The notes beneath the pieces are model-generated. The model was given only the letters and a program-made list of their open reading frames with translations. It made no database searches and was not told where the DNA came from. Shown piece after piece: positions 2,963-63,679 of a stretch of DNA of 64,000 nucleotides. How positions within the stretch are numbered: position 1 is the stretch's first letter; every line of letters starts with the position of its first letter. This stretch comes from a virus: IMG/VR virus record IMGVR_UViG_3300024503_000419. One strand, 5' to 3'. The position numbers were made by a program, and so were the translations under genes.

Positions 2963-2969
2963 TGACCGT

Positions 2970-4849: not shown

Positions 4850-4877
4850 GTTTTTTAATCACTAAAAATAAAGCAAA

Positions 4878-6050: not shown

Positions 6051-6081
6051 TAGTAGGAGAATAACCTAGATTATATTAACC

Positions 6082-6124: not shown

Positions 6125-6139
6125 ATTATTTAAGACAAC

Positions 6140-6703: not shown

Positions 6704-6704
6704 T

Positions 6705-8181: not shown

Positions 8182-8202
8182 TAGCTAAACTCTTTACATA
8201 AA

Positions 8203-8457
8203 ATGATATTTCTTCCACAAAACCCATGCTGCACACCTGTAGTCACTCCTGTTTATGCTGCGTGTGAACCTTGTACAGCACAGCCTATTCCAACGAATAG
8301 TGTGTCATACAGTGGTCCAAACCTTCCATGTACACAGATTCATACATGTGATACAGTGACTGTGTCTCTTCAAAAAATAGACGAACAAATTTGTATACTG
8401 AAACAACAAATCGTAAACCTTCAGAGTCAAATAGACGATTGTTGCACACCTTCATAA
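8203..8457 (+). CDS. Small Cys-rich fibre-anchor-like protein
   Basis: 84 aa; SVSYSGPNLPCTQIHTCDTVTVSLQKID is homologous to the N-terminal modules of the genes at 7084, 43810 and 44214. Confidence 0.6.
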   Translation: MIFLPQNPCCTPVVTPVYAACEPCTAQPIPTNSVSYSGPNLPCTQIHTCDTVTVSLQKIDEQICILKQQIVNLQSQIDDCCTPS

Positions 8458-43809: not shown

Positions 43810-44205
43810 ATGCGTACTGCTGCAATTTGCCCAACATGTGCCACCTATGAGAATGCTCTGTGCGTTCTTTATAACGGTGACTATTTGACTAACATTGACG
43901 TAAACCCCCTAGACTCTTTACAGGTTGCGTTAGAGAAGATTAATGACAATCTGGTTCCTGTAACAGGATCTGGTGCTCCTACAGCTGGAGCCATCTACTT
44001 GGGACAGCTCTATTTAAGAACCAGTGGACCCAAGAATCTTTATTATGCCCAAACTACAGGCACAGGAGCCTTAGACTGGAGGATTCTTCTTTCTGTTCCT
44101 TACACAGGAGCCCCTGAATATGCTGATAATGCTGCTGCCATTTTGGGTGGTTTACTCCAAGGTCAAGTGTACCGTACAGGTGACGTATTGAAAATCGTAC
44201 ATTAA
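43810..44205 (+). CDS. Small fibre-associated protein
   Basis: 131 aa; N-terminal CVLYNGDYL...DSLQVALEKI module and C-terminal YADNAAAILGGL..GQVYRTG motif typical of fibre ends. Confidence 0.65.
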   Translation: MRTAAICPTCATYENALCVLYNGDYLTNIDVNPLDSLQVALEKINDNLVPVTGSGAPTAGAIYLGQLYLRTSGPKNLYYAQTTGTGALDWRILLSVPYTGAPEYADNAAAILGGLLQGQVYRTGDVLKIVH

Positions 44206-44213: not shown

Positions 44214-46931
44214 ATGAACGTACTTCCTAATATACTCCAATATGGGGGTAGTGGCACATCTGGTACTTCAGGTGAGTCAACTCCTGACTGTGTAGATAAT
44301 ACACCGATATATACCTATGTGCCTGATCCTGAACCAGTTAATGATTCAGACAAAGTACCGTTCATATCTAAACTCTTTGGCAATCATAGCCAAAATGATT
44401 CTTTTACAACCAGCCCAGTCATATGTGCTGCTAACCCTTGTCCAATTATATTGAACGCCACTTGTGTGTTCTATGAAGGACCCAATTTGATCTATACAAA
44501 AATTAACACCAACGATAATGTTCAGACAGTCATTGAGAAAATAGAAGCAGCTTTTGCCAATGGTTTGGCAGGAAGCTCTGGAACTTCTGGAACTTCTGGA
44601 ACCAGTGGGACCAGTGGTACTTCAGGTGCAGATGGAACGTTTGGTACAAGCGGTAGCTCAGGAACCAGTGGGACCAGTGGGACCAGTGGTACAAGCGCTA
44701 CGAGTGGAACTAGTGGCATAGCTGGTAGTTCTGGTACAAGCGGCACAACAGGTACTTCTGGTACCACTGGTACGAGTGGTACGAGTGCAACCAGTGGAAC
44801 ATCAGGCACAAGCGGTACAAATGGTACTGGCGGCACATCAGGCACGTCTGGTACATCAGCTACCTCAGGATCTAGTGGAACCACAGGTACAAGCGGTACA
44901 AGTGCTACAAGTGGTACGTCTGCAACAAGTGGATCAAGTGGTACATCAGGTACGTCAGCAACAGATGGTACAGGTGGTACCAGTGGTACGTCAGGTACTT
45001 CTGCCACCTCTGGTACATCAGGATCTTCTGGAACTGATGGAACAGGAGGAACTTCAGGTACAAGTGGTACGAGTGCGACTTCTGGATCTTCAGGTACTAC
45101 AGGTACAAGTGGAACAAGCGGAACTACAGGAACATCTGGCAGTAGTGGTACAAGTGGTACATCTGCCACTGATGGTACAGGAGGTTCATCAGGTACGTCA
45201 GGCACAAGTGGAACTGCTGGTACAACAGGTACATCAGGAACCAGTGGTACAGCTGGAACCAGTGGTACAGATGGTACAGCAGGTACGTCTGGTACTAGTG
45301 GCACTGCAGGAACAAGTGGCACATCAGGAACCACTGGCATAAGTGGTACTTCTGGCACTTCAGGAACCAGTGGAACAGACGGATCTGGAGGTACAAGCGG
45401 TACATCTGGTACAAGTGCAACAAGCGGCACCAGTGGTACGAGTGCTACATCAGGCACTTCTGGAACAAGTGGTACTACAGGTACATCAGGATCTTCAGGT
45501 TTGAGTGGTGATAGATTTGCTACAACATCCTCCACCACATATACAATACAAGCCCCTCCTGGTACAGGCACTATTACAGTGGGTACAGGACTGGCATACA
45601 CTCTGGGGCAATCAATCATTATAACTTATTCAGGCGATGCTTTCAAACACAATGAAGCAGTCGTTACATCATATGATCCAAACACTGGTAGCTTAAGCTT
45701 CCAAGTGACTGGACAAACTGGCTCTGGTACATATTCATCTTGGGAAGTGAACCTAGATGGTGCTACAGGTGGTAACGGTACAGATGGTACTTCTGGAACA
45801 AGTGGTACGTCTGCTACAGCAGGTACGTCTGGTACTACAGGAACTTCTGGTTCAAGTGGTAGTAGTGGTACAACAGGCACATCAGGTACTGGTGGCACAT
45901 CTGGTACAAGTGGAATAGATGGCACGTCTGGAACTACAGGCACCTCAGGCACCTCAGGAACCACTGGAACATCTGGTACAAGTGCTACATCTGGAACTTC
46001 AGGTACATCTGGTACTAATGGATCTAATGGTACATCTGGTACGTCTGGCACCACAGGTACATCTGGTAGTAGTGGAACAAGCGCTACATCAGGTACATCA
46101 GGCACTAGCGGCACTGATGGTTCAGGAGGAACCAGTGGTACGAGTGGCACTACAGGTACGAGTGGAAGTTCTGGCAGCTCTGGATCATCTGGTAGCAGTG
46201 GTACAGCTGGATCTTCAGGCACAAGCGGTACAGCAGGTAGCTCAGGAACAGATGGTAGTGGGGGAACCAGTGGAACATCTGGATCTTCTGGATCTAGTGG
46301 CAGTGCTGGTACAAGTGGTACTGACGGTAGTGGCGGAACCTCTGGCACTGCAGGAACTAGTGGATCGTCTGGGTCTTCTGGAAGCTCTGGTAGTTCAGGC
46401 ACAGCAGGCTCTAGTGGAACAAGTGGAACATCAGGTACTGATGGAACAGGAGGAACATCAGGTGTTGATGGTACTAGTGGAACTTCAGGTACAAGTGGTG
46501 TGGATGGAACATCAGGTACTTCTGGAGTTGATGGCACATCTGGTTCATCTGGAACCTCAGGAATCAACGGAACATCTGGTGTGGATGGAAGTTCAGGTAC
46601 AAGTGGATCAAGCGGTACTAGTGGAACAAGTGGTGCGTCTTCAGTGTATGTTGGTACAAGCTCAAGTGCAATCACACTACCTTTGGTAGAATGTACAACA
46701 ACCACTACTACTACCGCTTTTGTATGTGCCAACTGTAGAAATTGGGAGTATAATGGAGCAACTATTCCTGAAGGAGGTGATGTGATTCATTATTACAACT
46801 GTTATACTGGTGATCCTCAAACAATTACATTAAGCAGTGGTGACCCAACTGGTCAATTCTGTAACTGTGATTCTGTAGGAAATCCTTATGCTGATAATGG
46901 TACAACGTTGACACAAATTGGTATATGTTGA
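44214..46931 (+). CDS. Gly-Thr-Ser collagen-like fibre protein
   Basis: 905 aa; two runs of about 100 (G/A)-X-Y triplets dominated by GTS/GSS/GTT flanking a globular domain; C-terminal poly-Thr and Cys-rich domain. Confidence 0.85.
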   Translation: MNVLPNILQYGGSGTSGTSGESTPDCVDNTPIYTYVPDPEPVNDSDKVPFISKLFGNHSQNDSFTTSPVICAANPCPIILNATCVFYEGPNLIYTKINTNDNVQTVIEKIEAAFANGLAGSSGTSGTSGTSGTSGTSGADGTFGTSGSSGTSGTSGTSGTSATSGTSGIAGSSGTSGTTGTSGTTGTSGTSATSGTSGTSGTNGTGGTSGTSGTSATSGSSGTTGTSGTSATSGTSATSGSSGTSGTSATDGTGGTSGTSGTSATSGTSGSSGTDGTGGTSGTSGTSATSGSSGTTGTSGTSGTTGTSGSSGTSGTSATDGTGGSSGTSGTSGTAGTTGTSGTSGTAGTSGTDGTAGTSGTSGTAGTSGTSGTTGISGTSGTSGTSGTDGSGGTSGTSGTSATSGTSGTSATSGTSGTSGTTGTSGSSGLSGDRFATTSSTTYTIQAPPGTGTITVGTGLAYTLGQSIIITYSGDAFKHNEAVVTSYDPNTGSLSFQVTGQTGSGTYSSWEVNLDGATGGNGTDGTSGTSGTSATAGTSGTTGTSGSSGSSGTTGTSGTGGTSGTSGIDGTSGTTGTSGTSGTTGTSGTSATSGTSGTSGTNGSNGTSGTSGTTGTSGSSGTSATSGTSGTSGTDGSGGTSGTSGTTGTSGSSGSSGSSGSSGTAGSSGTSGTAGSSGTDGSGGTSGTSGSSGSSGSAGTSGTDGSGGTSGTAGTSGSSGSSGSSGSSGTAGSSGTSGTSGTDGTGGTSGVDGTSGTSGTSGVDGTSGTSGVDGTSGSSGTSGINGTSGVDGSSGTSGSSGTSGTSGASSVYVGTSSSAITLPLVECTTTTTTTAFVCANCRNWEYNGATIPEGGDVIHYYNCYTGDPQTITLSSGDPTGQFCNCDSVGNPYADNGTTLTQIGIC
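44571..45510 (+). repeat. Gly-X-Y (GTS) coding repeat, block 1
   Basis: Period-3 amino acid repeat with highly varied synonymous codons. Confidence 0.95.
45759..46640 (+). repeat. Gly-X-Y (GTS) coding repeat, block 2
   Basis: Period-3 amino acid repeat with highly varied synonymous codons. Confidence 0.95.
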
Positions 46932-46946
46932 CACAAATTGGTACAT
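46907..46946 (+). repeat. 20-bp tandem duplication at the 3' end of the GTS fibre gene
   Basis: GTTGACACAAATTGGTATAT followed by GTTGACACAAATTGGTACAT. Confidence 0.9.
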
Positions 46947-47013
46947 GTACCACAACCACTACAACAACTCAACCAATATAATTAAATTTACAAAACAACC
47001 TTAATATATCAAC

Positions 47014-49986
47014 ATGCCTAATTGCTCTCCTTGTGGATGTTATGACAATATAACCCTTACTACCCAAACAGGATTGTCATTCAATGCAAACGACTTTGTG
47101 CAGTTGTATGATGGTGTTAATTCTTACATATGGGGTGAAATTGTTTCATATAATAGTGGAACTGGAGAACTAGTTCTTAAACCTTGTCAATTTTGTGGAG
47201 ACGCAGGTGTTATAACTAATTGGACCATCACGTTATCTGGCATCCCTGGCCCAAGTGGAACTAGTGGAATAGGAATCTTTACTGCTGGTTCTGGTACTTG
47301 TTCTTCTATTAGATGTGGTGTTAATAATACAGCACCAGGTGATTATAGTTTTGCTGGAGGTGGTCAATGTAATACAGCTGGTGGGTGTCACTCATTTGTT
47401 GGTGGTGGATATCTAAATATAATCAGTAATAGTAATGGTACATGTAACTCAGCAATTGTAGGTGGAAAATTTAATATAAATCAAACTAGATTTTCTACTA
47501 TAGCTGGAGGAGAGTGTAATCAAATCTTAACATTATCAGGCTATGAGGGTTGGAGCTTTATTGGTGGAGGATCTTATAATATAATTTGTGGTTCTTCTCA
47601 TACAATTTCTGGAGGTAACTATAATACTATTACTGCTGGAACATATGGAACAGCCCAAGCTCACTTTATTGGTGGAGGTAACTGTAATACTATTAGTAGT
47701 GATTATAATACAAACACTATTTCTGGAGGTTACTATAACACCATAAGCGGCATGTATACCACAAATGCTTTTATTGGTGGAGGAAATACTAATACTGTTT
47801 GTTCACAAAATTCAAGTATTTTATCAGGATTCTGTAATACTATTAGTAGCAACTGTTGGAATCCAAACTCAGCTGGTTCATCTACCATACTATCAGGATA
47901 TAATAATAACATAACATGTAATACACTCTCATCTGCTATTGTTGGCGGAAGATATAATACAATATCAGGAGGATATTCCGCATTTATAGGTGGTGGTGAG
48001 TGTAATATTGCTGGTATTGGTTATTCAACTGTTAGTAGTGGTTATTGCAACGTAGCATATTATGGAGGATTTGTTGGTACAGGAGCGTTTAATACGGCTG
48101 GCGCTGGTGAATCATTTATAGGAGCAGGTATGTATAATACAGCTTGTGGAATACATTCAGCAATAGTAAGTGGACAATATAATACTATATCTTCAAATTA
48201 TTCATTTATTGGTGGAGGAAGGTTTAATGTGAATGGAGGAGACTGTTCATCTATTGCAGGTGGTACTTATAACTATACTTATGGACAAAACTCAACTGTT
48301 GGTGGAGGAGATGGTAACCAAGCGTGTGGATCTTATTCAGCAATTGTTAACGGTTTATTAAATACAGCAAGTGGTTATAACTCAGTAGTATTAGGTGGTA
48401 GGGGTAATACAGCATCTGCTCCATATAGTGCAGTATTTGGCTGCGGATTAACTAACTCTGTAGCTTGTTCATTCAAAGCCAATAGATTAATTGCAGCTAA
48501 CTTAGCAACTGCTGGTTGTGCTGTTTGTACTGATGCAAATGGAATGTTAGTTCCATACACTGCAGGTGGTGGTGGAATTATGGTTGCAGGTGCAGGTTGT
48601 AATTCTACACTTAGATGTGGAGTTAGTAATACTGCATGTGGAGATTATAGCTTTGCAGGTGGTGGACAATGTAATACAAACGGAGGATTAGCTACAAGTA
48701 TAGTAGGAGGTACAAATAACACAGCAGCACAATATGTGTCTTGTACATATAATATAACAAATTCCAATTTATATGGAATGGGCTATTTGCAATTAAATAG
48801 CTCTTACGGAGATGTTACATCAATGTTCCCAAATGGTTCTACAGTAACGATGAACTCAGCCACTTATGGTCTAATGACAGGACAGGTTACTGTGAGTAAC
48901 TACTACGGCTGGATACCTGCCACTGTAATTGCAACGACTTGCTCCTCTTTCTATTGTGATTTTACAACCATCACTGGAAGTATAGGTTCTTCAAACTCAT
49001 TTATAGGAGGTGGACAGTATAATACAGTTTGCTCAAATAATTCAAATATTGTAGGTGGCCGTAGTAATACAATTCATCCAGCTTATTCAGCAATAGTAGG
49101 TGGGTGTAATAATACAGTTTGTTCTAAGCGTTCATTTATAGGTGGAGGAAGTTATAACATAATAGATGGGTATTCAAATACTGCAACTATTGTGGGTGGT
49201 ACTGGTAACTGTATTGCCCCTAATTACAACAACTCATTTAGTGCATATTATACATTTATTGGAGGCGGTACTTCTAACTTTGCTAGTAATCAATACTCAA
49301 CTATTGTTGGTGGATGTGCAAATAGTGCTAGTGGTTACTCATCATTTATTGGTAATGGATACCAGAATGCTGCTCGTGGATACTATTCTGCAGTAGTTGG
49401 AGGTGGTAGTAATATAGTAGACGGTGATGGTTCATTTATTGGAGGTGGTTATTTTAACACGGTTTGTTGTAGCCAATCAGTAATCCTAGGAGGTATGGGT
49501 AATACAGCCTCTGGAAATTATTCAGGAGTATTTGGATGTTGTATTGTTAACAGTATTGCTTGTTCTTTTGCATCAAACCAATTGTGGGCTTGTAATCTTG
49601 TAGGTACAACAGTTGCTTTATGTGTTGGAACAAATGGTGTGATTGTTAGAAATAGCTCTGACATACGTTTAAAAACAAACATCTGTGGTCTTTCTTATGG
49701 ATTATGTGATGTTAAAAAACTGAACCCTGTTAGCTTTGACTGGAATGAAACAGCAAGAGAAACTAGAGGATGTAATAGACAAATTGGCTTCATAGCTCAA
49801 GAGGTTGAACCAATTATACCAGAAGCAGTAGGTAGAAGTGCAGAGAGTGATGAAATGTCTCTAAGTCCAGAGAAAATAATTCCAGTTCTTACTAAAGCAT
49901 TACAAGAATTAAGTGCTAAATTTGATGCTCAAGAACAAAAAATAGCTACCTTAGAGGATATAATCAAAAGAAACAATTTAGTTTAA
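47014..49986 (+). CDS. Beta-helical tail spike/fibre with a C-terminal Peptidase S74 intramolecular chaperone
   Basis: 990 aa; many S(F/A)I(G/V)GGxxN repeats; SDIRLKTNI, LNPVSFDWN, IGFIAQEV and IPVLTKALQEL chaperone motifs. Confidence 0.85.
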   Translation: MPNCSPCGCYDNITLTTQTGLSFNANDFVQLYDGVNSYIWGEIVSYNSGTGELVLKPCQFCGDAGVITNWTITLSGIPGPSGTSGIGIFTAGSGTCSSIRCGVNNTAPGDYSFAGGGQCNTAGGCHSFVGGGYLNIISNSNGTCNSAIVGGKFNINQTRFSTIAGGECNQILTLSGYEGWSFIGGGSYNIICGSSHTISGGNYNTITAGTYGTAQAHFIGGGNCNTISSDYNTNTISGGYYNTISGMYTTNAFIGGGNTNTVCSQNSSILSGFCNTISSNCWNPNSAGSSTILSGYNNNITCNTLSSAIVGGRYNTISGGYSAFIGGGECNIAGIGYSTVSSGYCNVAYYGGFVGTGAFNTAGAGESFIGAGMYNTACGIHSAIVSGQYNTISSNYSFIGGGRFNVNGGDCSSIAGGTYNYTYGQNSTVGGGDGNQACGSYSAIVNGLLNTASGYNSVVLGGRGNTASAPYSAVFGCGLTNSVACSFKANRLIAANLATAGCAVCTDANGMLVPYTAGGGGIMVAGAGCNSTLRCGVSNTACGDYSFAGGGQCNTNGGLATSIVGGTNNTAAQYVSCTYNITNSNLYGMGYLQLNSSYGDVTSMFPNGSTVTMNSATYGLMTGQVTVSNYYGWIPATVIATTCSSFYCDFTTITGSIGSSNSFIGGGQYNTVCSNNSNIVGGRSNTIHPAYSAIVGGCNNTVCSKRSFIGGGSYNIIDGYSNTATIVGGTGNCIAPNYNNSFSAYYTFIGGGTSNFASNQYSTIVGGCANSASGYSSFIGNGYQNAARGYYSAVVGGGSNIVDGDGSFIGGGYFNTVCCSQSVILGGMGNTASGNYSGVFGCCIVNSIACSFASNQLWACNLVGTTVALCVGTNGVIVRNSSDIRLKTNICGLSYGLCDVKKLNPVSFDWNETARETRGCNRQIGFIAQEVEPIIPEAVGRSAESDEMSLSPEKIIPVLTKALQELSAKFDAQEQKIATLEDIIKRNNLV

Positions 49987-51154: not shown

Positions 51155-51976
51155 ATGGAAAAGATATTCTATCAAAGCTCATTGCCTAGAGCAGGAAGTA
51201 CATTGTTGCAAAACATACTAGCTCAAAATCCTGATATATACGCTACACCTACAAGTGGTGTGTTAGAACTTATATTTGGTGCACGTGCTAACTATACAAA
51301 CTCAGCAGAGTTTAAAGCTCAAGATCCTGAGTTAATGAAAACAGGATGGCAAGCATTTGCTAAAGCTGGAATGGATGCATTCTACAATGCTGTTACAGAT
51401 AAAAAATATGTGATAGATAAGTCTCGTGGATGGGGTATTCACTATGATTTCTTACAGTTTGTACAAGGTGGTGAACCTAAAATCATTTGCATGGTTAGAG
51501 ACCTACGTGATGTATTTGCTTCTATGGAGAACAACTTCAGAAAGCATCCTGAGAAGCAATCAGACATTTTGGATTGGTCTAAAGGTCAAGGTACTACTGT
51601 ACCAAAGCGTATTGATATCTGGTCACAGAATCCTCCTGTAGGACTAGCTATTGAAAGACTAGCTGAGATATTTAGACTAGGTATTAATACTAAAATATTA
51701 TTCATTAAATTTGAAGACCTATGTCTCTATCCAGAAACAGAGATGACAAGGATATATCAATACCTTGGTATACCACACTACCACCATGATTTTGATAACA
51801 TTGAGCAAATTACTAAGGAGGATGATGAAGTGTATGGAGCATTTGGTGATCATGTCATTAGAACAAAGCTAGAGCCTGTTCCTTCTAGAGCAAAAGCATT
51901 GTTAGGGAAAGATGTAGTTGATTGGATATACAACAACTACAAATGGTTTTATGACTATTTTAGATATTCAAAATGA
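51155..51976 (+). CDS. PAPS-dependent sulfotransferase
   Basis: 5'-PSB loop SLPRAGSTLLQNIL, DKSR, 3'-PB motif MVRDLRDVFAS, IKFEDL. Confidence 0.9.
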   Translation: MEKIFYQSSLPRAGSTLLQNILAQNPDIYATPTSGVLELIFGARANYTNSAEFKAQDPELMKTGWQAFAKAGMDAFYNAVTDKKYVIDKSRGWGIHYDFLQFVQGGEPKIICMVRDLRDVFASMENNFRKHPEKQSDILDWSKGQGTTVPKRIDIWSQNPPVGLAIERLAEIFRLGINTKILFIKFEDLCLYPETEMTRIYQYLGIPHYHHDFDNIEQITKEDDEVYGAFGDHVIRTKLEPVPSRAKALLGKDVVDWIYNNYKWFYDYFRYSK

Positions 51977-52416
51977 TTATAGTGTTATTTGGACAGCCTA
52001 ATTGTGGAAAGTCCACATTGGCTGATGCGCTTATAAAGGAAAGGTTTACTATTGTAAACATTGATGGAGACAAGCTCAGAGAGATATTTGTGAACAAAGA
52101 TTACAGCAGAGAGGGGAGAATCAAGAATCTGAACAGGGCTAGTGATATTGCTACGTTCATGAGCACTATTGGGGATGACATCATCCTATCTCTCGTATAT
52201 CCATATAAGGAAGCTAGAGACTACCTCAACAGCTTGTGTGACTCTGTCTATTGGGTTTATTTGACATATGATGAGCCTAGAGGCAGGGAATCATTTCATG
52301 TAAAGGATTTTGAAGAGCCTGGAGATGATGAACGTGTTCTTCGTCTGAACACTTCTACAACATCCATAGAGGACTGTATAACTAAAATAATGACACATGC
52401 AAAACTTCTTGGCTAG
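51973..52416 (+). CDS. cysC: Adenylyl-sulfate (APS) kinase
   Basis: P-loop GQPNCGKST, IDGDKLRE, DYSREGRIKNL, FEEP motifs of CysC. Confidence 0.8.
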   Translation: MIIVLFGQPNCGKSTLADALIKERFTIVNIDGDKLREIFVNKDYSREGRIKNLNRASDIATFMSTIGDDIILSLVYPYKEARDYLNSLCDSVYWVYLTYDEPRGRESFHVKDFEEPGDDERVLRLNTSTTSIEDCITKIMTHAKLLG

Positions 52417-52795
52417 ATCAGCAGGACCCACTTCTTCCAATGACAAGAAATATTCTATGTTTATAGGAAGATGGCAACCCTGGCACGCTGGACACAGATG
52501 GTTAATTGACCAGAGACTCAATGAAGGAAAGAATGTCCTCCTCTGTATAAGAGATGTAGAACCAGATGAGAAGAATCCTTGGACCGCACATCAAGTGATG
52601 TTAAACTTATTCGATGAACTTAAAGACTTGGTTGAATCAGGAAGAGTTAGGGTTATTACTATACCTGATATTGAATCTATTAATATTGGTAGGGGTGTTG
52701 GTTATGATGTCATAGAACACGTACCCCCTCAGGAGATACATGACATATCTGCTACAAAAATCCGTGAGCAAATGAAAGTAGAAGGTAAGCTATGA
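52397..52795 (+). CDS. HxGH-family nucleotidyltransferase, candidate minimal ATP sulfurylase
   Basis: FIGRWQPWHAGH and ISATKIRE motifs; lies between the APS kinase and a DUF2061-like gene. Confidence 0.65.
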   Translation: MQNFLARSAGPTSSNDKKYSMFIGRWQPWHAGHRWLIDQRLNEGKNVLLCIRDVEPDEKNPWTAHQVMLNLFDELKDLVESGRVRVITIPDIESINIGRGVGYDVIEHVPPQEIHDISATKIREQMKVEGKL

Positions 52796-53794: not shown

Positions 53795-54435
53795 ATGTGT
53801 ATTATTATTTCTGTATAATATGCTAGGAATTCTTCTGACCAAACTCCTGCTGTGATGTCCACACCATCCAAGGAATACACCTTGAAATTTACATCATGTA
53901 AATATTCATCTCTAAACTTCTTGAATTTTTGTTTCAGAAGAAGATTGCTCAAATGCCATTCTCCAGCTATCTTCTTCATATTGCTCAGTATCCATGGTTT
54001 GTTTTCTAGGGTGAATATGTCATACTCCCCACCCTCACAATCCATCTTAAGGAAGTCTATCCTACCAATATTGTAATCTTCAATCACCTGCTTAAAGGTG
54101 GTGCAATACGTAGATTCCCCCTGATCATCAAAGACAAACTCACCATCAAACTTACCTACATGTCCTGATATAGCTTTGTTGATACATGTAACAGGAGCGT
54201 GTCTTGTATTATACACCAGTGTCTTAAACTCTGAATAACTAGGCTCAAAACAGAACACGTGCTTTGGATGCTTATCTAGGATGGAATAGGTGAATATACC
54301 TATACTTGCTCCAATATCAAACACCACATCACCCTCTTCTACGGTGAAGCATTTCTCATATATCCTATCTACAAATGTTTCTCTCTTTACTGTCTCTATA
54401 AATATGGCGTCTGATGTTCCCCAATTAAATTCCAT
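53782..54435 (-). CDS. FkbM-family SAM-dependent methyltransferase
   Basis: VVFDIGASIGIF, VFCFEP, IDFLKMDCEGGEYDIF. Confidence 0.88.
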   Translation of the reverse strand: MEFNWGTSDAIFIETVKRETFVDRIYEKCFTVEEGDVVFDIGASIGIFTYSILDKHPKHVFCFEPSYSEFKTLVYNTRHAPVTCINKAISGHVGKFDGEFVFDDQGESTYCTTFKQVIEDYNIGRIDFLKMDCEGGEYDIFTLENKPWILSNMKKIAGEWHLSNLLLKQKFKKFRDEYLHDVNFKVYSLDGVDITAGVWSEEFLAYYTEIIIHIWSA

Positions 54436-57400
54436 GATTGTATTTTTTTAATTACGTCTTCAGATTTAATAGATGTCTGACATTCCCATTGTCTGTCTGT
54501 TCCTTTATGCACAGGACACCAGTTCCAATCTCCTGCATCAAATCTGTATTCAGCTTTGTTCCAGCATCCATGACATACATTCTCATTAGTAATTCTAATA
54601 CAGCTAAACTCATGGTCAGCAGCTGTAAAGTTACTAATCATTACCACTTGTTTATTCAGAGCCCAAGCTAACCAGCTTAGCCCACTGGATAGTCCTATAA
54701 AGAACTCACTGTGATGGATAACATTCATGGTGTTCTCCATAGATGTATCTTCAAGCTGTTCACAATTGTCAAAAGGATTCTTCTCCTTGGACACATTAAC
54801 TATCTTATATCCATTCTCATGTAAGAAGTTGATGGTGAGCTGCCAGTCTTCCTTCTGCCAAAACTTACATCCAGCCGTTGAATTAGTGGCTATTGTAACA
54901 TATCTACCATATGAATTGTTACCAGGTGTAAAGGCTAAACGTGGTCTAATCTCTTGAAAATCAAGACCTAAGATGTTGGTTGCTGTCTGTTGGAGGGGAA
55001 TAGTATTACACAAAGCTGGCTCCTTATTACCATCATAGAACCAACCCACACTGTACATACCAAGGATGTTACCTACACCTGTTCCTGGTTCTACAAACTC
55101 AAGCTCTGGATAGACACTCTCAAATAGGAAGTTCTTAAATGTGCTCACTGTTACATGGCAATTGTGCTTCCTCTTGAACTCAAGTACATATGGCATCCAT
55201 GCAATTGTGTCTCCTAGTGATTTGCTATCCATAGCTATATAGACACGCTGGCCCTCATAATTGAGTGTATACTCATAGTATATACTTTCATCCTTCCACA
55301 CCTTGATGGTCCATTTGGTAAACCATCTCCTGTTGAGCTTCACCCAGTGATTCACCTTTATCTTGTTCTCATAGTGACACACACCCTGCTCATCATAAAA
55401 TCTGACAGTGAAGGTGCTTTTGGAATTACCTGTTATCTCTAGGAATGGCTCGTGTATAAATGTGTGGGTGATATTAATCAGTTCTTTGTCAGGCTGTATG
55501 GGTCTATTCATCACCTCCTGATACAGATCAATATGCTTCTGTGCGAAATCAAGCTTCTGTCCTTCAGGAATATCGTAGCTCACATCTGTATCTAACAGCT
55601 GGGTGAGCTGTTCTTTCATCTTTTCAGGCTTCAGATCTGTAATATACTGAGTGAACATGTCTCCATACTGAGGAAGATTTCTTGCCAGGATTGGCAGTCC
55701 ATATCCTATAGCTTCTCTAATCACCAGTGGATTGCATTCAAATGTACTGTTAAACAGGAACACATCTGCAGCTGCCATAAACCTACCCACATCATCACGC
55801 TCTCCCCATACATGTACATTAGGTGGTATGTCCTTCATAATGGGTTCCCAGTAGTGCTGGAAGTTACCAGCCTGATTACCTACAAAGTGGAATTGTACAT
55901 CTGGCATTTGTCTAGCCAGCTCTACAGCTTCTCCTTGGTTCTTACCAGCAGTCCATAGTCCTACATTAAGCACATGTTTACCAGGTCCTAGATCTATGGG
56001 CTCAGATTCTTTCTTCACGATAGGAAACTCAATCACCTCCTTTCTAGAAGGCATATTAGCAAACGTCTTTAGATGGTGTGGTGTACAGAACGCATATGCA
56101 TCTGGATGATAGCGCTTCTCTAAGTCTGGCTTGAACACAATGTTGTGACATGTTTCAATCATCCTCCAGGTTCTATTTGGACTGTACAGCGCTTGTCTCA
56201 CCTCTTCTGGCCAGTTGTTCCAGCCATCTTCCACCATCTCATCCACATGCACTATATCTACAGCATGTCTTTTGATGATATCAATCACCTCCATCTTATT
56301 CTCTCCCAAGGTGTAGAAGTGGTGGGCTATTTCCTTTATCTGATTCTTCTGGACAACAAAGTGATCACTGTGGTTGGAATACTCCACAACAATAATCTTA
56401 GATTTGGAATAGGCCAACAGATCTGCTATTCTCTCTAAAAGGAAGGCAGGCATTCCACCTGTCGATAGATGTGGTGCCAGGAATAATATCTTAAGCTGAT
56501 TCTTCTGGCGCTCTAACATTCTGTACATAGTGACAGCATCCTTTTCTCCGTGATAGAATAGTAACTGGTCTACATCTGCAGGCACAGCTACAAAATGTGC
56601 TAGGTGCTGCTTCTTAGTTCTGAATGTGACATTATTCACTGTGTTCAAGGATCCATTCATGTATATGTATGGTAGTCCATCTAATGCCTTGTACTTCCAC
56701 AGAAGCACGTTAGCTATAGTTTCCTCATGATAGGGAGCATAGTATTGTGGATTCTGTAACACCTTGGGATGGTTACACATCCACCACCAACTGTCAAGGA
56801 ATTCTTGACAGTATTCACCAGCTACAAAATATCCTGTTTGTCTGTATTTATCTCTGATGTATTGATCTACACCAAACAGCTCACAAGCTGGATGTTCAAG
56901 AGTAGTGGATAGGTCATCTCTACTATCAGCCCCACCTCTTCCATTGCTGATCATCCATTCATATATTCCCTCTGTAAAATACGGATAGGCACTCTTCACT
57001 GGGAAATAGTCAAATATTCTGTCTACATACTTGGTAGCCACACTATCACTATCCACATAGGCCACTGTTTTAGCATGCTTTAACGCTTCTTTAACAATTA
57101 GTGGGCGCTGGATGAGGATGTTGTAAATGTCTGGATTAGCTCTGTCTATATACTTCTGCTGAGGAAGATCCTTGGTTTTACAATCCCAACGGAATGTAGC
57201 AGCTCCCTTTATATCCACATCTGAGTTGAGCATATAAACCATAACAGGTAGACTGCTAAAGGTTCTAAGAGAATCTACGCACGCCTGCACAGTGTCCTTA
57301 TAGCTCTCTGTAGCATATAAGACATATGCTTTTTCCCATCTAATGTCCTGATTTACATAGTATCCATACCACTGGTTGTCATATAGCTTCTCCAGTCCTG

Positions 57401-57848
57401 GGTAACGCTCTAGCATCACCTCTGGTGTTAGATCTGCCTGGTGGTGGGTTTCATACTCATTTCCATACTCTGCTCCATCCTGAGCCATCATATAGGGCAC
57501 AGCTACAAGAAACCTCTTGTCCATCAGGTCAAAGTCTGTAAGCAGGTTTTTAGCTGTGCCTGAGGGTAGGTGTTCTAGAATATCCCCTAAGATGATAAAG
57601 TCATAGGGTCTAACATCAAAGGTGACAATATCCCCTACATAAACATTATCATATTTAGCTCTCAGATTGAACTGATCTACATATGGAGCCCATATCTCTA
57701 CAGCATCCATCCTATATCCTAAATTCCTTAGCAAATCAGAATATGTTCCCTGTCCAGGACCTACATCTAGAATGCGTGTTGATAGGGGAATATTGTCTAT
57801 AAACCACTGCTTTATTTCAGGCTTGAAGTAGGTGTAACTGTTTGGCAT
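54396..57848 (-). CDS. Four-domain enzyme: class I methyltransferase, GT-A glycosyltransferase, GT4 glycosyltransferase and Aah/TibC-type protein O-heptosyltransferase
   Basis: ILDVGPGQG/GDILEH; AYVDSD (DxD); FLAPHLSTGGMP...ECNPLVIREA; SLGDTIAWMPY...FIGLSSGLSWLAWA...CHGCW...WCPVHKGTDRQWEC. Start placed at the ATG at 57848, downstream of the promoter. Confidence 0.85.
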   Translation of the reverse strand: MPNSYTYFKPEIKQWFIDNIPLSTRILDVGPGQGTYSDLLRNLGYRMDAVEIWAPYVDQFNLRAKYDNVYVGDIVTFDVRPYDFIILGDILEHLPSGTAKNLLTDFDLMDKRFLVAVPYMMAQDGAEYGNEYETHHQADLTPEVMLERYPGLEKLYDNQWYGYYVNQDIRWEKAYVLYATESYKDTVQACVDSLRTFSSLPVMVYMLNSDVDIKGAATFRWDCKTKDLPQQKYIDRANPDIYNILIQRPLIVKEALKHAKTVAYVDSDSVATKYVDRIFDYFPVKSAYPYFTEGIYEWMISNGRGGADSRDDLSTTLEHPACELFGVDQYIRDKYRQTGYFVAGEYCQEFLDSWWWMCNHPKVLQNPQYYAPYHEETIANVLLWKYKALDGLPYIYMNGSLNTVNNVTFRTKKQHLAHFVAVPADVDQLLFYHGEKDAVTMYRMLERQKNQLKILFLAPHLSTGGMPAFLLERIADLLAYSKSKIIVVEYSNHSDHFVVQKNQIKEIAHHFYTLGENKMEVIDIIKRHAVDIVHVDEMVEDGWNNWPEEVRQALYSPNRTWRMIETCHNIVFKPDLEKRYHPDAYAFCTPHHLKTFANMPSRKEVIEFPIVKKESEPIDLGPGKHVLNVGLWTAGKNQGEAVELARQMPDVQFHFVGNQAGNFQHYWEPIMKDIPPNVHVWGERDDVGRFMAAADVFLFNSTFECNPLVIREAIGYGLPILARNLPQYGDMFTQYITDLKPEKMKEQLTQLLDTDVSYDIPEGQKLDFAQKHIDLYQEVMNRPIQPDKELINITHTFIHEPFLEITGNSKSTFTVRFYDEQGVCHYENKIKVNHWVKLNRRWFTKWTIKVWKDESIYYEYTLNYEGQRVYIAMDSKSLGDTIAWMPYVLEFKRKHNCHVTVSTFKNFLFESVYPELEFVEPGTGVGNILGMYSVGWFYDGNKEPALCNTIPLQQTATNILGLDFQEIRPRLAFTPGNNSYGRYVTIATNSTAGCKFWQKEDWQLTINFLHENGYKIVNVSKEKNPFDNCEQLEDTSMENTMNVIHHSEFFIGLSSGLSWLAWALNKQVVMISNFTAADHEFSCIRITNENVCHGCWNKAEYRFDAGDWNWCPVHKGTDRQWECQTSIKSEDVIKKIQSWNLIGEHQTPYL

Positions 57849-57868
57849 AACTGATTGGCTTTCTGTTA

Positions 57869-57900
57869 CAAAGATAGAAAAAAGATTTGGTAGTTTCAAA
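57869..57900 (-). promoter_or_regulatory. Bacteroidota-type promoter driving the glycosyltransferase-FkbM-hldD operon
   Basis: Minus strand: TTTG (57900-57897), 20-nt spacer, TATCTTTG (57876-57869): perfect consensus. Confidence 0.85.
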
Positions 57901-57917
57901 TAAATTACATAGATTTG
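57886..57917 (+). promoter_or_regulatory. Bacteroidota-type promoter driving cupin-hldC-hldA
   Basis: TTTG (57886-57889), 20-nt spacer, TAGATTTG (57910-57917): perfect consensus; overlaps the divergent promoter. Confidence 0.85.
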
Positions 57918-57953
57918 CCCCACAAGTGGAGTGTATCCACTTTATGCTATATT

Positions 57954-58301
57954 ATGCACGAACTACATAAAGTTGAGAAGGGTTGGGGTCACGAACTCTG
58001 GATCCATAACTCCCCAGAATACTGCGGAAAACTGCTGGTTTTCAAGGCTGGCAAGAAGTTCTCAATGCACTTCCACAAGATAAAGCAGGAGAGCTGGTAT
58101 GTAAGCAAAGGGTCCTTCCAATATACATGGGTGGACATGTCTACAGGCACCCTCTATACAGACTATCTGAAGGAAGGAGATGCTCTAACCATTATGCCCT
58201 ACCACCCTCACCAGCTGGAAGCTCTAGAAGATGGCATCATATTTGAGGTGAGTACACAACACTTTGATGAAGATAGCTACAGACTATGGAAGGGGGACTA
58301 A
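57954..58301 (+). CDS. Cupin-fold sugar(-phosphate) isomerase-like protein
   Basis: VEKGWGHE, SMHFHKIKQESW, PYHPHQL and FEVST cupin metal motifs; start placed at the ATG at 57954. Confidence 0.8.
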   Translation: MHELHKVEKGWGHELWIHNSPEYCGKLLVFKAGKKFSMHFHKIKQESWYVSKGSFQYTWVDMSTGTLYTDYLKEGDALTIMPYHPHQLEALEDGIIFEVSTQHFDEDSYRLWKGD

Positions 58302-58696
58302 GGGTATGGGTGAATGGAGCATTTGATGTCCTGCATATAGGGCATATTCAACTCCTTAAAAGAGCTAAAGAGTTTGGTAGTGTGAGAGTGGGTGTTGATA
58401 GTGACGCACGTGTTGCAGAATTAAAAGGTGATAGTAGACCATTTAACAAGCTGTCTGACAGAATAGATTTCCTGAAGAGCATTAGGTATGTGGATGAGAT
58501 AGTATCATATGATTCTGAGGAAGAGCTCACCAACCAAATCAAACTTTATGAACCAGACATCATGGTGATAGGATCTGACTACATGGGAAAAAGAATAGTG
58601 GGGGCTGAATATATAACACAGATAGTATTCTTTGACAGAATAGAACATAAATCAACTACATCAATATTAGGGTATGAAGCTGGTGGTAATAGGTGA
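58286..58696 (+). CDS. hldC: D-glycero-beta-D-manno-heptose 1-phosphate adenylyltransferase (RfaE/HldE domain II)
   Basis: NGAFDVLHIGH, GVDSDARV..LKGDSRPFN, GSDY. Confidence 0.82.
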   Translation: MEGGLRVWVNGAFDVLHIGHIQLLKRAKEFGSVRVGVDSDARVAELKGDSRPFNKLSDRIDFLKSIRYVDEIVSYDSEEELTNQIKLYEPDIMVIGSDYMGKRIVGAEYITQIVFFDRIEHKSTTSILGYEAGGNR

Positions 58697-59414
58697 TGTC
58701 TGCAAGGATGTCTTCATCTATGGAGACTGTAAACGCTTAAGTCCAGAAGCACCTGTACCTGTATTTAATCCAGTGGAAACAATAGAGAACTCAGGAATGG
58801 CTGGTAACGTGGTAGCCAATCTAAGTGCTATCAACCCCAACCTGCAGATAAATTTCCATCACAACTTTGAGAACATTACCAAAACCAGGTATGTAGATAA
58901 GAAGACCAATCACCTTTTCCTAAGAGTGGACGATGAGCCAAAGGTGAATAGAATATTCCTCACAGCTCAGCTTATTGAGGATGTAGAAACTGCAGATGCT
59001 GTGATTGTGAGTGACTATGACAAGGGATATCTAACAGAAGATGACCTGCAATATATAGCTGTTAAAGCTAAGTGGTCCATCTTAGACAGCAAGAAGCATT
59101 TAAAACCACACACCATATCAAACTATTCATTCATCAAACTGAATGAATCTGAATACAATAAAAACAAACAGTCTCTAATTTACATGAGAGACAAAGTGAT
59201 AGTGACACTTAGTTCCAAAGGAGCAATGCATAAAGATGTTACATACAGCTCCCCAAGTCCAAAAGAAACTATAGATGTAAGTGGTGCAGGAGATACGTTC
59301 GTTGCAGCATTTACAATTAAATACTTGGAAACCAAAGACATATCTACGTCTATTGAATATGCCAATCTTATGTCATCTATTGTGGTGGGTAAGAGAGGTG
59401 TTGTAACCCCATAA
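58674..59414 (+). CDS. hldA: D-glycero-D-manno-heptose 7-phosphate kinase (RfaE/HldE domain I, PfkB family)
   Basis: IGDVCKDVFIYG..KRLSPEAPVPV, GMAGNV..NL, VSDYDKG, DVSGAGDTF. Confidence 0.88.
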   Translation: MKLVVIGDVCKDVFIYGDCKRLSPEAPVPVFNPVETIENSGMAGNVVANLSAINPNLQINFHHNFENITKTRYVDKKTNHLFLRVDDEPKVNRIFLTAQLIEDVETADAVIVSDYDKGYLTEDDLQYIAVKAKWSILDSKKHLKPHTISNYSFIKLNESEYNKNKQSLIYMRDKVIVTLSSKGAMHKDVTYSSPSPKETIDVSGAGDTFVAAFTIKYLETKDISTSIEYANLMSSIVVGKRGVVTP

Positions 59415-63031: not shown

Positions 63032-63679
63032 ATGGCCATACCATCCCGTCAGATAGGCTGGGGCACACAGGACAACCTGCTGTGGCAGATTGCAAAGCAA
63101 CTGGAGGGAGCCTCTTGTCAGCTCTGTACGTTGAATGATAACATAGCCACTATTACAGGCACCTCTGGTACAAGTGGGACTAGTGGTGTTAGCGGATCTA
63201 ATGGTACATCAGGTACCAGTGGGCTTTCTAGTTTTAAATACGGATCTTTCTATAGCACTGTGGATCAATCACTTGCAAAGGATGCTATAGGACCTTTTAC
63301 ATTTAACAACACAGACCTAAGTAATGGTGTTAGTGTGGTTTCTAGTTCAAGAATTACACTGGCTAACGCTGGTAAATACAACATCCAGTTTAGTGCACAG
63401 TTTCATCACATAGGTGGTGGAGGATCTGGGGAAACAGTGAACATATGGCTTGCTAAAAACGGCTCAGATATAGCTGACTCAAACACAAGACTCACTATCA
63501 CCTCTAGTACTAAGTATAGTGTGGCAGCCTGGAACTTCTTTGTAGATGCTTCAGGAGGAGACTATTATGAAATCATCTGGTCTACAGATAATGCCAATAT
63601 AAAAATAGAACATGAGGCTGCTGGTGTGCATCCTGCTATACCATCAATAATTTTAACAGTCAATCAAATAGGAATATAA
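63032..63679 (+). CDS. Short fibre/decoration protein: anchor module, GTS linker, C1q/BclA-CTD-like head
   Basis: GTSGTSGTSGVSGSNGTSGTSG linker; YGSFY...ITLANAGKYNIQFSAQF...GDYYEIIWS jelly-roll pattern. Confidence 0.7.
   Translation: MAIPSRQIGWGTQDNLLWQIAKQLEGASCQLCTLNDNIATITGTSGTSGTSGVSGSNGTSGTSGLSSFKYGSFYSTVDQSLAKDAIGPFTFNNTDLSNGVSVVSSSRITLANAGKYNIQFSAQFHHIGGGGSGETVNIWLAKNGSDIADSNTRLTITSSTKYSVAAWNFFVDASGGDYYEIIWSTDNANIKIEHEAAGVHPAIPSIILTVNQIGI

Follow-up and report, generated by a model that had tools for sequence, protein, structure and literature searches.

A crAss-like phage encodes a long tail fibre built largely from collagen-like Gly-Thr-Ser (GTS) triplets, together with a multidomain protein that carries a TibC/Aah-like (BAHT) heptosyltransferase domain. 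GTS fibres and BAHT genes co-occur across viral genomes in both directions, which makes the fibre (P0001) very probably the substrate of the BAHT-bearing protein (P0002), so that it would be sugar-coated. The sequence anatomy of the fibre, the family membership of the enzyme and the genomic co-variation of the two are established; the sugar is perhaps structurally required for the triple helix, and the co-occurrence fits a need in folding and a need in some other fibre function alike. Both genes lie in the 64,000-nucleotide stretch of IMG/VR virus record IMGVR_UViG_3300024503_000419 that we analysed, called here the window (Table 1). We did not find the pairing described in the literature on phage BAHT enzymes, glycosylated collagen-like phage fibres, crAss collagen-like fibres or phage Mel-JY01.

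Table 1. Features of the fibre, the transferase and neighbouring genes in the window
Feature	Position (nt)	Strand	Evidence
Tail-fibre gene P0001, 905 aa	44214..46931	+	ORF; PHROG tail-fibre families match
N-terminal anchor domain of P0001, aa 1-116	44214..44561	+	Alignments of relatives
Collagen-like block 1, aa 117-434, 106 (G/A)-X-Y triplets, 11 with Ala	44562..45515	+	Sequence, Pfam
Knot domain, 81 aa, between blocks 1 and 2	45516..45758	+	AF2 model
Collagen-like block 2, aa 516-809, 98 triplets, 3 with Ala	45759..46640	+	Sequence, Pfam
C-terminal Cys-rich head, aa 810-905, poly-Thr then 8 Cys	46641..46931	+	Sequence
Second fibre/spike, 990 aa: knot-like N-domain, beta-helix repeats, S74 intramolecular chaperone	47014..49986	+	Pfam, PHROGs
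Sulfotransferase, APS-kinase-like, nucleotidyltransferase-like cassette	51155..52795	+	Pfam
Transferase P0002, 1175 aa: methyltransferase, middle region, GT4, BAHT	54396..57923	-	Pfam
BAHT domain of P0002, aa 859-1155	54459..55349	-	PDB 4RAP match
Cupin, cytidylyltransferase-like and PfkB kinase genes	57915..59414	+	Pfam
Small fibre P0003, 215 aa: MAIPSRQIGW anchor, 8 GTS-type triplets, BclA_C-like head	63032..63679	+	Sequence, Pfam

The fibre gene and its repeats

By its sequence, P0001 is a crAss-like phage tail-fibre protein. It lies downstream of a crAss-type structural module of capsid, ring 1, ring 2 and muzzle genes, recognized by the Pfams Crass_capsid, Ring_1, Ring_2 and crAss_MUZ. 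Megablast with the whole region and TBLASTN with the whole protein, both under a low-complexity filter that strips the P0001 repeats, found no match and no close DNA relative among GenBank phages. The Pfam Collagen (PF01391) hits the protein at E 4.5e-63 and 209 bits, relative to a cut-off of 27.

An earlier note on this DNA had described about 200 (G/A)-X-Y triplets dominated by Thr and Ser at X and Y and free of Pro, and our count bears this out. The two blocks hold 204 triplets, with register unbroken within each; the first residue is always Gly (190 triplets) or Ala (14), Thr occupies X in 154 and Ser in 35 (Thr/Ser 93%), and Y is Ser in 144 (71%). Pro, Lys and Glu are missing from all 612 repeat residues, which include a single Arg and 17 Asp, and both known sequence-encoded stabilizers of the helix (Pro/Hyp and Lys-Asp/Glu pairs) are absent. 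There are 101 GTS, 29 GSS, 14 GTT and 11 ATS triplets, and the 101 GTS against 0 GST indicate an X/Y asymmetry that composition alone cannot explain. This asymmetry, with Thr, Val or Ile at X and Ser, Asn or Asp at Y, is kept over hundreds of diverged GTS proteins. The Y-position Ser residues stand in the contexts T-S-G (98), S-S-G (29) and T-S-A (14). The synonymous codons are indeed scrambled, as had been claimed: the 101 GTS units are written in 32 distinct 9-mers that draw on both Ser codon families, exact DNA repeats reach 23 nt at most, and repeat codon usage is about that of the other window genes.

The array is not the single continuous one, from 44571 to 46640, of the earlier description; the globular knot domain interrupts it, and block 1 begins at 44562, two triplets before 44571. 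Ala recurs, although without the periodicity attributed to it, at triplets 16, 26, 34, 39, 41, 45, 50, 58, 68, 96 and 99 of block 1 and at triplets 7, 26 and 37 of block 2. The collagen triple helix rises 0.286 nm per residue, and at this rise blocks 1 and 2, if triple-helical, would be ~91 and ~84 nm long.

Other domains of the fibre and a trimer model

The anchor domain is common to 35 viral contigs, where it keeps the same genomic position after genes of 1670 and 131 aa. Alignments from 12 phages give it 32 invariant columns; its conserved core (aa ~50-116) ends with EKIEAA... immediately before the first triplet. The knot is a predicted six-stranded beta-barrel (AF2 on 32 homologues, pLDDT 86.8), for which a Foldseek search of PDB gave no significant match (best E 0.019, to generic small beta-barrels). 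Dozens of unrelated contigs have it in their GTS proteins, often in several copies, and it weakly resembles the N-terminus of the neighbouring spike. The C-terminal head, with no homologue in any locus compared, is presumed from its position alone to be the distal or receptor-binding end. Pfam, even at E up to 5, found nothing for the N-terminal, knot and C-terminal domains or for the 131-aa and 288-aa genes.

A three-copy model of aa 48-175 scored 0.75, compared with 0.02 for the best of three controls, and has aa 75-141 at its interface; contact agreement between runs is at least 62%, and pLDDT is at least 57 for the partner and ~58 for the repeat. The mark for such models is reached by 20 of 30 solved one-chain pairs and 1 of 23 solved single chains, counts that apply only roughly here because our model used its own alignment and three copies. 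Because solved collagen helices exist, the pass may reflect likeness to these.

The BAHT domain of the transferase

The likeness to TibC that the earlier note had seen is upheld by a match to PDB 4RAP at E 1e-44, compared with E 0.4 for LPS heptosyltransferases. TibC residues Asp-110 (catalytic), Thr-226, Lys-230 and Trp-305 are kept as D905, T1016, K1020 and W1084, as are four of four iron-finger Cys (C1117/1120/1136/1148), and all of these are invariant in 11 phage sequences. We classify the domain, on this conservation, as a true BAHT domain. In the phage branch an invariant Thr replaces the Arg-286 with which TibC binds sugar; P0002 has Ser at the Pro-300 position of TibC, and the thumb beta-hairpin that forms the TibC dodecamer is deleted, with gaps at its tip (TibC ~262-266). 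The Arg-286 replacement and thumb loss imply that the phage enzymes may use another donor sugar and have another quaternary structure than TibC.

Co-variation among relatives

Through the N-terminal domain of the fibre we recovered 35 viral records, with 22 informative GTS-fibre records among them. P0002/BAHT homologues occur in 22 of the 35, and all 22 have GTS repeats; among the complete genomes, those with GTS have BAHT in six of six cases. Eight relatives have GTS repeats without BAHT, and all eight end within ~2 kb downstream of the fibre; the distance from fibre to BAHT gene in crAss-like relatives is ~4-12 kb.

Two near-complete relatives (G024 and G025) have fibres without GTS, and BAHT is also absent. 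The tree built from the neighbouring 1670-aa gene pairs G024 with G023, and G025 with G022, as sisters, a placement that implies two independent, concordant losses of GTS and BAHT, the only two fully informative loss pairs. The transferase gene is cleanly missing from G024, with its flanking neighbours retained, and the replacement fibre there is Thr/Ser-rich yet not G-X-Y.

Co-variation across wider viruses and its specificity

The pairing extends over crAss-like, jumbo, mega- and cyanophage genomes. Further BAHT-bearing records at least 90% complete have GTS in 10 of 10 cases, including jumbo phages of 326 and 318 kb, and GTS is present in 19 of 19 complete BAHT-bearing genomes. In Mel-JY01, a cultured Microcystis phage, a GTS gene without annotation lies 1.7 kb upstream of a BAHT fusion. 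Megaphage LR756501 (735 kb) has 966 GTS pattern hits, >470 kb from its own BAHT gene, and the 326-kb phage G041 has GTS repeats, none of them within 10 kb of its BAHT gene; from these two cases, linkage is no explanation for the pairing.

For specificity we compared arbitrary true-GTS contigs, 18 of 40 with BAHT, against Gly-Pro-X collagen contigs, 1 of 46 with BAHT (p = 1.7e-6); the single positive Gly-Pro-X contig also carries GTS. The BAHT enzyme is found on at least 480 IMG/VR contigs, and GTS contigs are many more than those among the matches listed. The co-occurrence of GTS fibres and TibC-like genes that the earlier note had offered as a check is thus strong, specific and seen in both directions, and the loss pairs and the Gly-Pro-X control agree.

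We found no complete genome with a GTS fibre but without BAHT among the genomes compared. Two true-GTS-fibre records, 84% and 64% complete, gave no GT9 domain, and megaphage LR756504 has a BAHT-like gene (33% identity) with G-[ST]-[ST] repeats absent. The pattern-positive, BAHT-lacking G062 (98% complete) was ruled out as an exception, its hit being a short GTT/GTG run rather than GTS; G094 was ruled out likewise. The Burkholderia BAHT relatives compared, of interest because Bucl3 of that genus is GTS-type, have no G-X-Y gene within 10 kb, nor do classical bacterial BAHTs (at most 36% identity) have one nearby.

Neighbouring genes

The earlier note took the adjacent island as a whole to glycosylate the fibre, and this is well supported for the BAHT-bearing gene, which tracks GTS, but not for the sulfation and heptose-supply genes, which do not and which we reject as acting on the fibre; with only the BAHT gene tracking GTS, the island is not a single unit. 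The sulfation cassette is present in G024, which has neither GTS nor BAHT, and missing from G014, G019 and G033, which have both; judged from gene content, it is an independent module, unconnected with the GTS fibre. The cupin, cytidylyltransferase-like and PfkB genes would provide an accessory nucleotide-heptose supply, and such heptose-synthesis genes occur only in the window and in G012 (one of nine relatives compared).

The spike and the GTS fibre are a single ORF of ~3000-3400 aa in L003, L004, L009, L012, L016 and L028. The small fibre P0003 is likely a second substrate of the transferase. Its orthologues share anchor and head but differ in the stalk, which is GTS in the BAHT-bearing G012 and GPQ/GIQ in the BAHT-lacking G024; in G023, the BAHT-bearing sister of G024, where we had expected a GTS stalk, the protein is entirely stalkless and so bears on the swap neither way.

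Proposed mechanism and alternatives

We propose that P0001 forms a homotrimer in which the conserved N-terminal domain would anchor the fibre and set the register, with the two triple-helical stalks linked by the beta-barrel knot and the Cys-rich head distal. We infer the sugar transfer, its acceptor residue, its donor sugar and its structural role as follows. The BAHT domain of P0002 would O-glycosylate the fibre in the cytoplasm of the infected cell, most likely at Y-position Ser in the contexts T-S-G and T-S-A, with ADP-heptose or a related sugar as donor; extending and capping the glycan would then fall to the GT4, middle and methyltransferase domains fused to it. The GTS-type stalk would depend on this sugar coat for fibre function, most plausibly through helix stabilization and hydration. 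Salt bridges are the common stabilizer of the triple helix, with Thr glycosylation the known alternative (PMC11923368). TibC and Aah modify Ser, not Thr, and act on synthetic peptides, and the mapped TibA sites are N-S-G-G and N-T-S-A-A (PMC4358343). Taken as a whole, a trimeric GTS fibre that P0002 glycosylates and whose function depends on its sugar coat is in our judgement narrowly probable.

The foremost alternative is that P0002 does glycosylate the fibre, but that the sugar is a shield or functional coat rather than a requirement of the helix; it might confer resistance to proteases or abrasion, keep a very long uncharged fibre soluble, mask it from host defences or grazers, or bind host surface glycans weakly. 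All of the co-variation between enzyme and fibre is equally compatible with such a coat, and two further observations favour it: an enzyme with GT4 and methyltransferase domains builds beyond the single sugar that suffices in Riftia-type peptides (PMC11923368), and the unmodified GTS/GSS collagen-like regions of Burkholderia Bucl3 have a predicted Tm of 20-35 C (PMC4565658), a stability that might serve a phage of cold water without any sugar. We nonetheless consider it rather unlikely. In the BAHT-lacking G024 the small fibre stays collagen with Pro/Gln triplets, pointing to helix chemistry and not to a generic coat; a stand-alone BAHT (~360-400 aa) suffices in 5 of 18 GTS phages; and every complete genome found with a GTS fibre has BAHT.

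A possible objection is that BAHT modifies the beta-helix spike, another Ser/Thr-rich virion protein or a component of the host envelope, with the GTS pairing arising from linkage or a shared host lineage. Known BAHT substrates are all beta-helical autotransporters, not collagen-like helices (PMC4358343), and the neighbouring spike has beta-helix repeats; the spacing of the two genes in crAss-like relatives, given above, would also suit linkage. However, we rejected the spike as the BAHT substrate, since its modules do not co-vary with the enzyme: spike/beta-helix modules are kept in the BAHT-lacking G024 and G025 and missing from the BAHT-bearing G019 and G033. The knot, too, is missing from many GTS proteins of BAHT-bearing phages, the Thr/Ser-rich replacement fibre of G024 comes without BAHT, and the pairing spans phage groups from crAss-like to megaphages, all of which makes another target highly improbable.

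Gly-X-X repeats can adopt other folds, as in the snow-flea antifreeze protein. A disordered, mucin-like linker or a polyglycine-II bundle, with the transferase decorating a Ser/Thr-rich spacer, is less probable still as a reading of the G-T-S array, for although the repeats lack Pro and charge pairs and are modelled with low pLDDT, register is perfect over 106 + 98 triplets, position 1 admits Gly and Ala but no other residue a single step away from GGN, the X/Y asymmetry persists across diverged proteins, the trimer interface takes in the first seven triplets, and the turn-forming breaks every ~10 residues that a polyglycine-II bundle requires are absent.

Returning to the glycosylated triple helix, we offer a bolder generalization only tentatively, as possible rather than probable: that Y-Ser O-glycosylation by a virus-specialized TibC/Aah branch is a third general route to the collagen triple helix, independent of Pro/Hyp and of salt bridges, used by phages from ~100-kb crAss-like to 735-kb megaphages for fibres hundreds of nm long, and that GTS stalks can neither fold nor persist without it.

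Should the fibre be glycosylated, environmental phages of a very common class would encode their own glycoprotein fibre. In phage biology virion glycosylation is known from only a few systems, and in this one it would bear on adsorption, on stability and on recognition. To collagen biochemistry the reading, if true, would bring a Pro-free, charge-free helix whose stability may rest on a Ser-linked sugar, and possibly recombinant collagen-like materials of tunable stability; to glycoenzymology, a branch of BAHT enzymes that has turned from beta-helices to collagen-like helices as its target. The cultured Mel-JY01 has the same gene pair, which opens the glycosylation question to direct bench work.

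Comparison with known systems

The closest enzymes are those of the E. coli pairs TibC-TibA and Aah-AIDA-I (PDB 4RAP/4RB4; PMC4358343), with the homologous domain described above. P0002 retains from TibC the catalytic Asp, the iron-finger Cys and three of the four residues that bind sugar, and would likewise be a cytoplasmic enzyme that hyper-modifies Ser of a long repetitive fibrous surface protein; the fibre shares with the TibA sites the local contexts S-G and T-S-A. As in BAHT enzyme-substrate systems, the genes for enzyme and partner are co-inherited (22 of 22 informative relatives). Unlike the TibC/Aah systems, in which the substrate is a beta-helical autotransporter passenger with ~19-aa repeats, the co-varying partner here is a virion G-X-Y stalk, and the phage domain lacks the thumb hairpin, has Thr for Arg-286, and is fused to GT4, methyltransferase and a further region.

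Among collagen-like proteins, Burkholderia Bucl3 shares the Pro-free GTS/GSS triplets, in 38-63 repeats, but is a bacterial surface protein whose glycosylation is not discussed in its description (PMC4565658). EPclA of an E. coli O157 prophage (PMC3368898) has the plan proposed for P0001, with a trimerizing N-terminal domain, a collagen stalk and a C-terminal head; unlike P0001 it is rich in Pro and charge and has no dedicated transferase, and it is stable unmodified, with a Tm of 42 C as given in PMC11923368.

BclA of the Bacillus anthracis exosporium is also a microbial collagen-like filament with triplets rich in hydroxy amino acids, and the small fibre P0003 has a weak BclA_C-like head. 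The O-glycans are BclA's: its GPT repeats carry O-linked oligosaccharides (Daubenspeck 2004, as cited in PMC11923368). It differs from P0001 in having Pro at X, Thr at Y, unrelated rhamnosyltransferase-type enzymes as its modifiers and a place on the spore surface. PMC11923368 also cites the cuticle collagen of Riftia pachyptila, Gly-X-Thr(Gal) (Mann 1996), together with peptides of the form (Gly-Pro-Thr(beta-Gal))10. This is an animal extracellular collagen, with Thr at Y, Pro still present and galactose as the sugar. The sugar is thus on Y-Thr in Riftia and BclA, whereas P0001 has Ser at Y and Thr at X; as cited there, Riftia nonetheless gives the precedent that a glycosylated hydroxy residue at Y can stand in for hydroxyproline as the stabilizer of the helix.

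A two-block collagen-like tail fibre

Genes for the crassvirus major capsid protein, tail ring proteins 1 and 2 and the muzzle protein (Pfam) lie upstream of the fibre, and by its sequence the window comes from the genome of a crAss-like phage. These structural genes are followed by a 4013-aa ORF and a 1670-aa ORF, and the next large gene is that of the fibre protein, P0001 (Table). Its repeats match Collagen (Pfam, E 4.5e-63) and fall in tail-fibre families of PHROGs. We found the earlier description of these as proline-free, Gly-Thr-Ser-type (GTS) triplets to be accurate: position 1 of the 204 triplets is Gly in 190, Ala in 14 and nothing else, X is Thr in 154 and Ser in 35, and Y is Ser in 144. 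Pro, Lys and Glu are absent from the 612 repeat residues, which include 17 Asp and a single Arg. Residue order is strict (GTS 101, GSS 29, GTT 14, ATS 11, GST 0). The Gly-to-Ala substitutions, described as periodic, are recurrent but irregular, and the array of about 200 triplets is split by a folded 81-aa domain. The scrambling of synonymous codons holds: the 101 GTS units derive from 32 distinct 9-mers using both Ser codon families, no exact DNA repeat exceeds 23 nt, Tandem Repeats Finder yields arrays of only 64-80% match, and codon usage resembles that of other window genes.

Features of the fibre, transferase and related loci (window positions unless an accession is given)
Feature	Nucleotides	Residues	Strand	Remarks
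P0001 fibre gene	44214-46931	905 aa	+	ORF
P0001 N-terminal domain		1-116
P0001 triplet block 1	44562-45515	117-434	+	106 (G/A)-X-Y triplets
P0001 globular insert (knot)		435-515		81 aa
P0001 triplet block 2	45759-46640	516-809	+	98 (G/A)-X-Y triplets
P0001 Cys-rich C-terminal domain		810-905
Sulfotransferase/APS-kinase-like/nucleotidyltransferase-like cassette	51155-52795
P0002 transferase	54396-57923	1175 aa	-	methyltransferase, GT4 and C-terminal GT9 (Pfam); middle region with no assigned domain
Small fibre	63032-63679		+	eight GTS-type triplets, BclA_C-like head
Mel-JY01 collagen-like ORF (L245, PP395634.1)	2-3052		+	unannotated; runs off record start
BAHT-like gene of LR756504.1 (L250)	457181-458242			33% identity; 636-kb megaphage

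Ala is the sole replacement of Gly, though the one-step neighbours of GGN codons include Asp/Glu, Val, Ser/Arg and Cys/Trp; X is filled by beta-branched Thr/Val/Ile, Y by small polar Ser/Asn/Asp. The register and the position-1 and X/Y rules are kept in unrelated phages too, and in relatives that share only 50-70% identity in the flanking domains. The unbroken register, Ala-only substitution and X/Y asymmetry favour a structure in which every third residue is tightly packed over a mere Ser/Thr-rich linker. A three-copy model of P0001 residues 48-175, from an alignment of the fibre N-domain (A3), scored 0.75 against 0.02 for the best control; among solved proteins, 20 of 30 one-chain pairs and 1 of 23 single chains reach this mark, counts that apply only roughly here because our own alignment was used, with three copies. 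At least 62% of contacts are common to the runs, partner pLDDT is at least 57, and the confident interface extends over the conserved core of the N-domain and on through the seventh triplet. Because collagen helices are among the solved structures, the model indicates likeness to collagen, not proof of it. The 81-aa insert is predicted to be a six-stranded beta-barrel (pLDDT 86.8) with no significant match in the PDB, and it recurs in dozens of unrelated contigs, whose GTS proteins often have multiple copies of it.

Directly upstream of the fibre gene, a 131-aa gene (43810-44205) is 82-88% identical in 15 relatives, its neighbours 28-64%; Pfam and PHROG give no match for it, and its product may be an adaptor docking the fibre N-domain. 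A 20-nt tandem repeat (2.5 copies, 46898-46948) crosses the fibre stop codon. Fibre and beta-helix/S74-chaperone spike form one ORF of ~3000-3400 aa in six fetched loci (L003, L004, L009, L012, L016, L028); the window has two genes (44214-49986) where many relatives have one ORF. The Cys-rich head of the window fibre has a homologue in none of the fetched loci.

GTS repeats co-occur with a BAHT domain

The transferase P0002 ends in a domain of the bacterial autotransporter heptosyltransferase (BAHT) family, which includes TibC and Aah of E. coli. The earlier note had called for a check on whether GTS fibres and TibC-like genes co-occur in viral databases, and they do, whether approached from fibre, enzyme or repeat.

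First, the P0001 N-domain found 35 viral contigs, of which 30 have a GTS-x3 DNA pattern and 22 a P0002 homologue; all 22 are GTS-positive, and the eight with GTS alone are fragments ending ~2 kb or less downstream of the fibre gene. At 90% completeness or more, the enzyme occurs in 6/6 GTS-positive genomes and is absent from both GTS-negative ones, G024 and G025. A tree built on the neighbouring 1670-aa gene pairs G024 with G023 and G025 with G022 as sisters (each 100% SH-aLRT), so that these are two independent concordant events. The G024 and G023 fibres have their first 286 residues in common (84% identity), beyond which the G024 fibre is Thr/Ser-rich and non-G-X-Y, then beta-helix. Gene order in G024 is exactly that of the window, minus the transferase segment between the nucleotidyltransferase-like and 104-aa genes.

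Small fibres share the anchor MAIPSRQIGW; across relatives their stalks are GTS-type, GPQ/GIQ-type, poly-Thr or none, and their heads vary. That of G012 reads GTS, knot, GTS. That of G024 has anchor and head unchanged and a stalk of GPQ/GIQ/GVQ; in this one case the collagen stalk is retained where the enzyme is absent, but in proline/glutamine triplets. The small-fibre locus, a modular 'whisker', often occurs as two or more paralogues in one genome.

Second, at least 480 viral contigs were matched by a BAHT-domain alignment. All ten further BAHT-positive records of at least 90% completeness contain GTS repeats, including 326-kb and 318-kb phages; in the 326-kb phage they are absent within 10 kb of the enzyme gene. 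Only four GenBank phage records have the domain. The 735-kb LR756501 has 966 GTS pattern hits, with over 470 kb between them and the enzyme gene (LR756503 has the same length and the same match). Mel-JY01, a cultured Microcystis phage, has, 1.7 kb ahead of a GT4/methyltransferase/BAHT fusion (CDS 4750-8430, 1227 aa, labelled 'methyltransferase FkbM'), a G-[T/S]-S ORF of 1016 aa or more, and offers a cultured test system for the pairing. Its record annotates antisense 'hypothetical proteins' (1-651 and 739-2298, minus strand) and only the 3' end of the ORF (2519-3052, plus strand). The same artefact arises in the window, where we rejected antisense ORFs of 365 and 368 aa (44522-45619 and 45626-46732, minus strand) as by-products of the GGN-ACN-WSN codon pattern. 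LR756504 has a BAHT-like gene and no G-[ST]-[ST] repeats anywhere in its record; this enzyme may serve another substrate.

On bacterial genome contigs, S/T-type G-X-Y genes lie within 10 kb of all three BAHT relatives that have usable flanks and 39-43% identity, and of none of ~74 relatives of at most 36% identity; the pairing is thus confined to one branch of the family. In MAG contigs filed as bacterial (L378, Bacteroides; L379, Ignavibacteriaceae; L380, Pseudobdellovibrionaceae), phage-branch BAHT relatives of 39-43% identity lie beside S/T-type G-X-Y genes of 50-276 triplets; these may be prophages, binned phage contigs or true cellular genes.

Third, among arbitrary viral contigs matching a 4.5-unit GTS pattern, most of them 10-40% complete, the BAHT profile matches 18/42. 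Two of the negatives, including the one complete negative, were discarded as short GTT/GTG runs, not GTS. The match rate is 7/9 at 60% completeness or more and 11/31 below. Two records with true GTS repeats (completeness 84% and 64%) show no GT9 domain and are possible exceptions. Of 46 Gly-Pro-X collagen-like control records one matched, and that genome also has 38 GTS pattern hits (18/40 versus 1/46, Fisher's exact p = 1.7e-6).

Neighbouring modules vary independently

The earlier note assigned fibre modification to the adjacent island; a role for the whole island does not survive comparison, as its sulfation and heptose-type genes do not track GTS. The sulfotransferase, APS-kinase-like and nucleotidyltransferase-like genes are kept in G024 (GTS- and BAHT-negative) and absent from three GTS- and BAHT-positive genomes (G014, G019, G033), and the cassette is inherited independently of both. 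Among the genomes compared, only the window and G012 have the epimerase, cupin, cytidylyltransferase-like and PfkB genes. The beta-helix spike was rejected as BAHT substrate: it is kept in BAHT-negative G024 and G025 and absent from G019 and G033. In 5/18 GTS phages the BAHT ORF is only ~360-400 aa. Because neighbouring modules vary and such BAHT-only ORFs occur, the minimal unit is the GTS protein plus BAHT.

The transferase retains most of the defining TibC residues

The C-terminal domain of P0002 matches TibC (PDB 4RAP) with E 1e-44, versus only E 0.4 for LPS heptosyltransferases. We mapped the defining TibC residues (PMC4358343) onto P0002: the catalytic Asp-110, Thr-226, Lys-230, Trp-305 and four iron-finger Cys are all kept, and these catalytic/sugar-site residues and Cys are invariant across 11 phage homologues. 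Unlike TibC, the phage branch has an invariant Thr for Arg-286, and P0002 lacks the dodecamer thumb hairpin; its stereoselectivity position is Ser, as in Aah. TibC and Aah modify Ser, not Thr, and accept synthetic peptides, with sites mapped in a TibA peptide at N-S-G-G and N-T-S-A-A (PMC4358343). Ser contexts in the fibre are T-S-G (98), S-S-G (29) and T-S-A (14).

Interpretation and comparison with known systems

The most economical reading is that the BAHT domain acts on both the fibre and the small fibre as its substrates, and we consider glycosylation of the fibre by P0002 quite probable. BAHT would modify the fibre in the cytoplasm, before assembly, and the fused P0002 domains would elaborate the glycan.

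As to the earlier claim that the sugar is structurally required, we lean towards a stalk that needs it to function. The argument for this role draws on the literature: proline or Lys-Asp/Glu salt bridges are the usual stabilisers of collagen-like proteins, and (Gly-Pro-Thr)10 stays a random coil unless its Thr is galactosylated (PMC11923368); the P0001 stalk has neither proline nor such salt bridges. What speaks against strict necessity is the proline-free GTS/GSS Bucl3 of Burkholderia, with a predicted Tm of 20-35 C unmodified (PMC4565658); co-occurrence, for its part, fits stabilisation and shielding alike. It seems rather unlikely that P0002 glycosylates the fibre with a sugar dispensable for folding.

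In the literature searched, the GTS-BAHT pairing, retargeting from beta-helix to collagen-like substrate, and the breadth of the pairing in phages all appear undescribed. The component parts are all of known kinds. Glycosylated collagen-like proteins are familiar from BclA and Riftia. Collagen-like phage fibres (PMC3368898) and the BAHT family (PMC4358343) are likewise established, and GTS-type repeats were already known from Burkholderia Bucl3.
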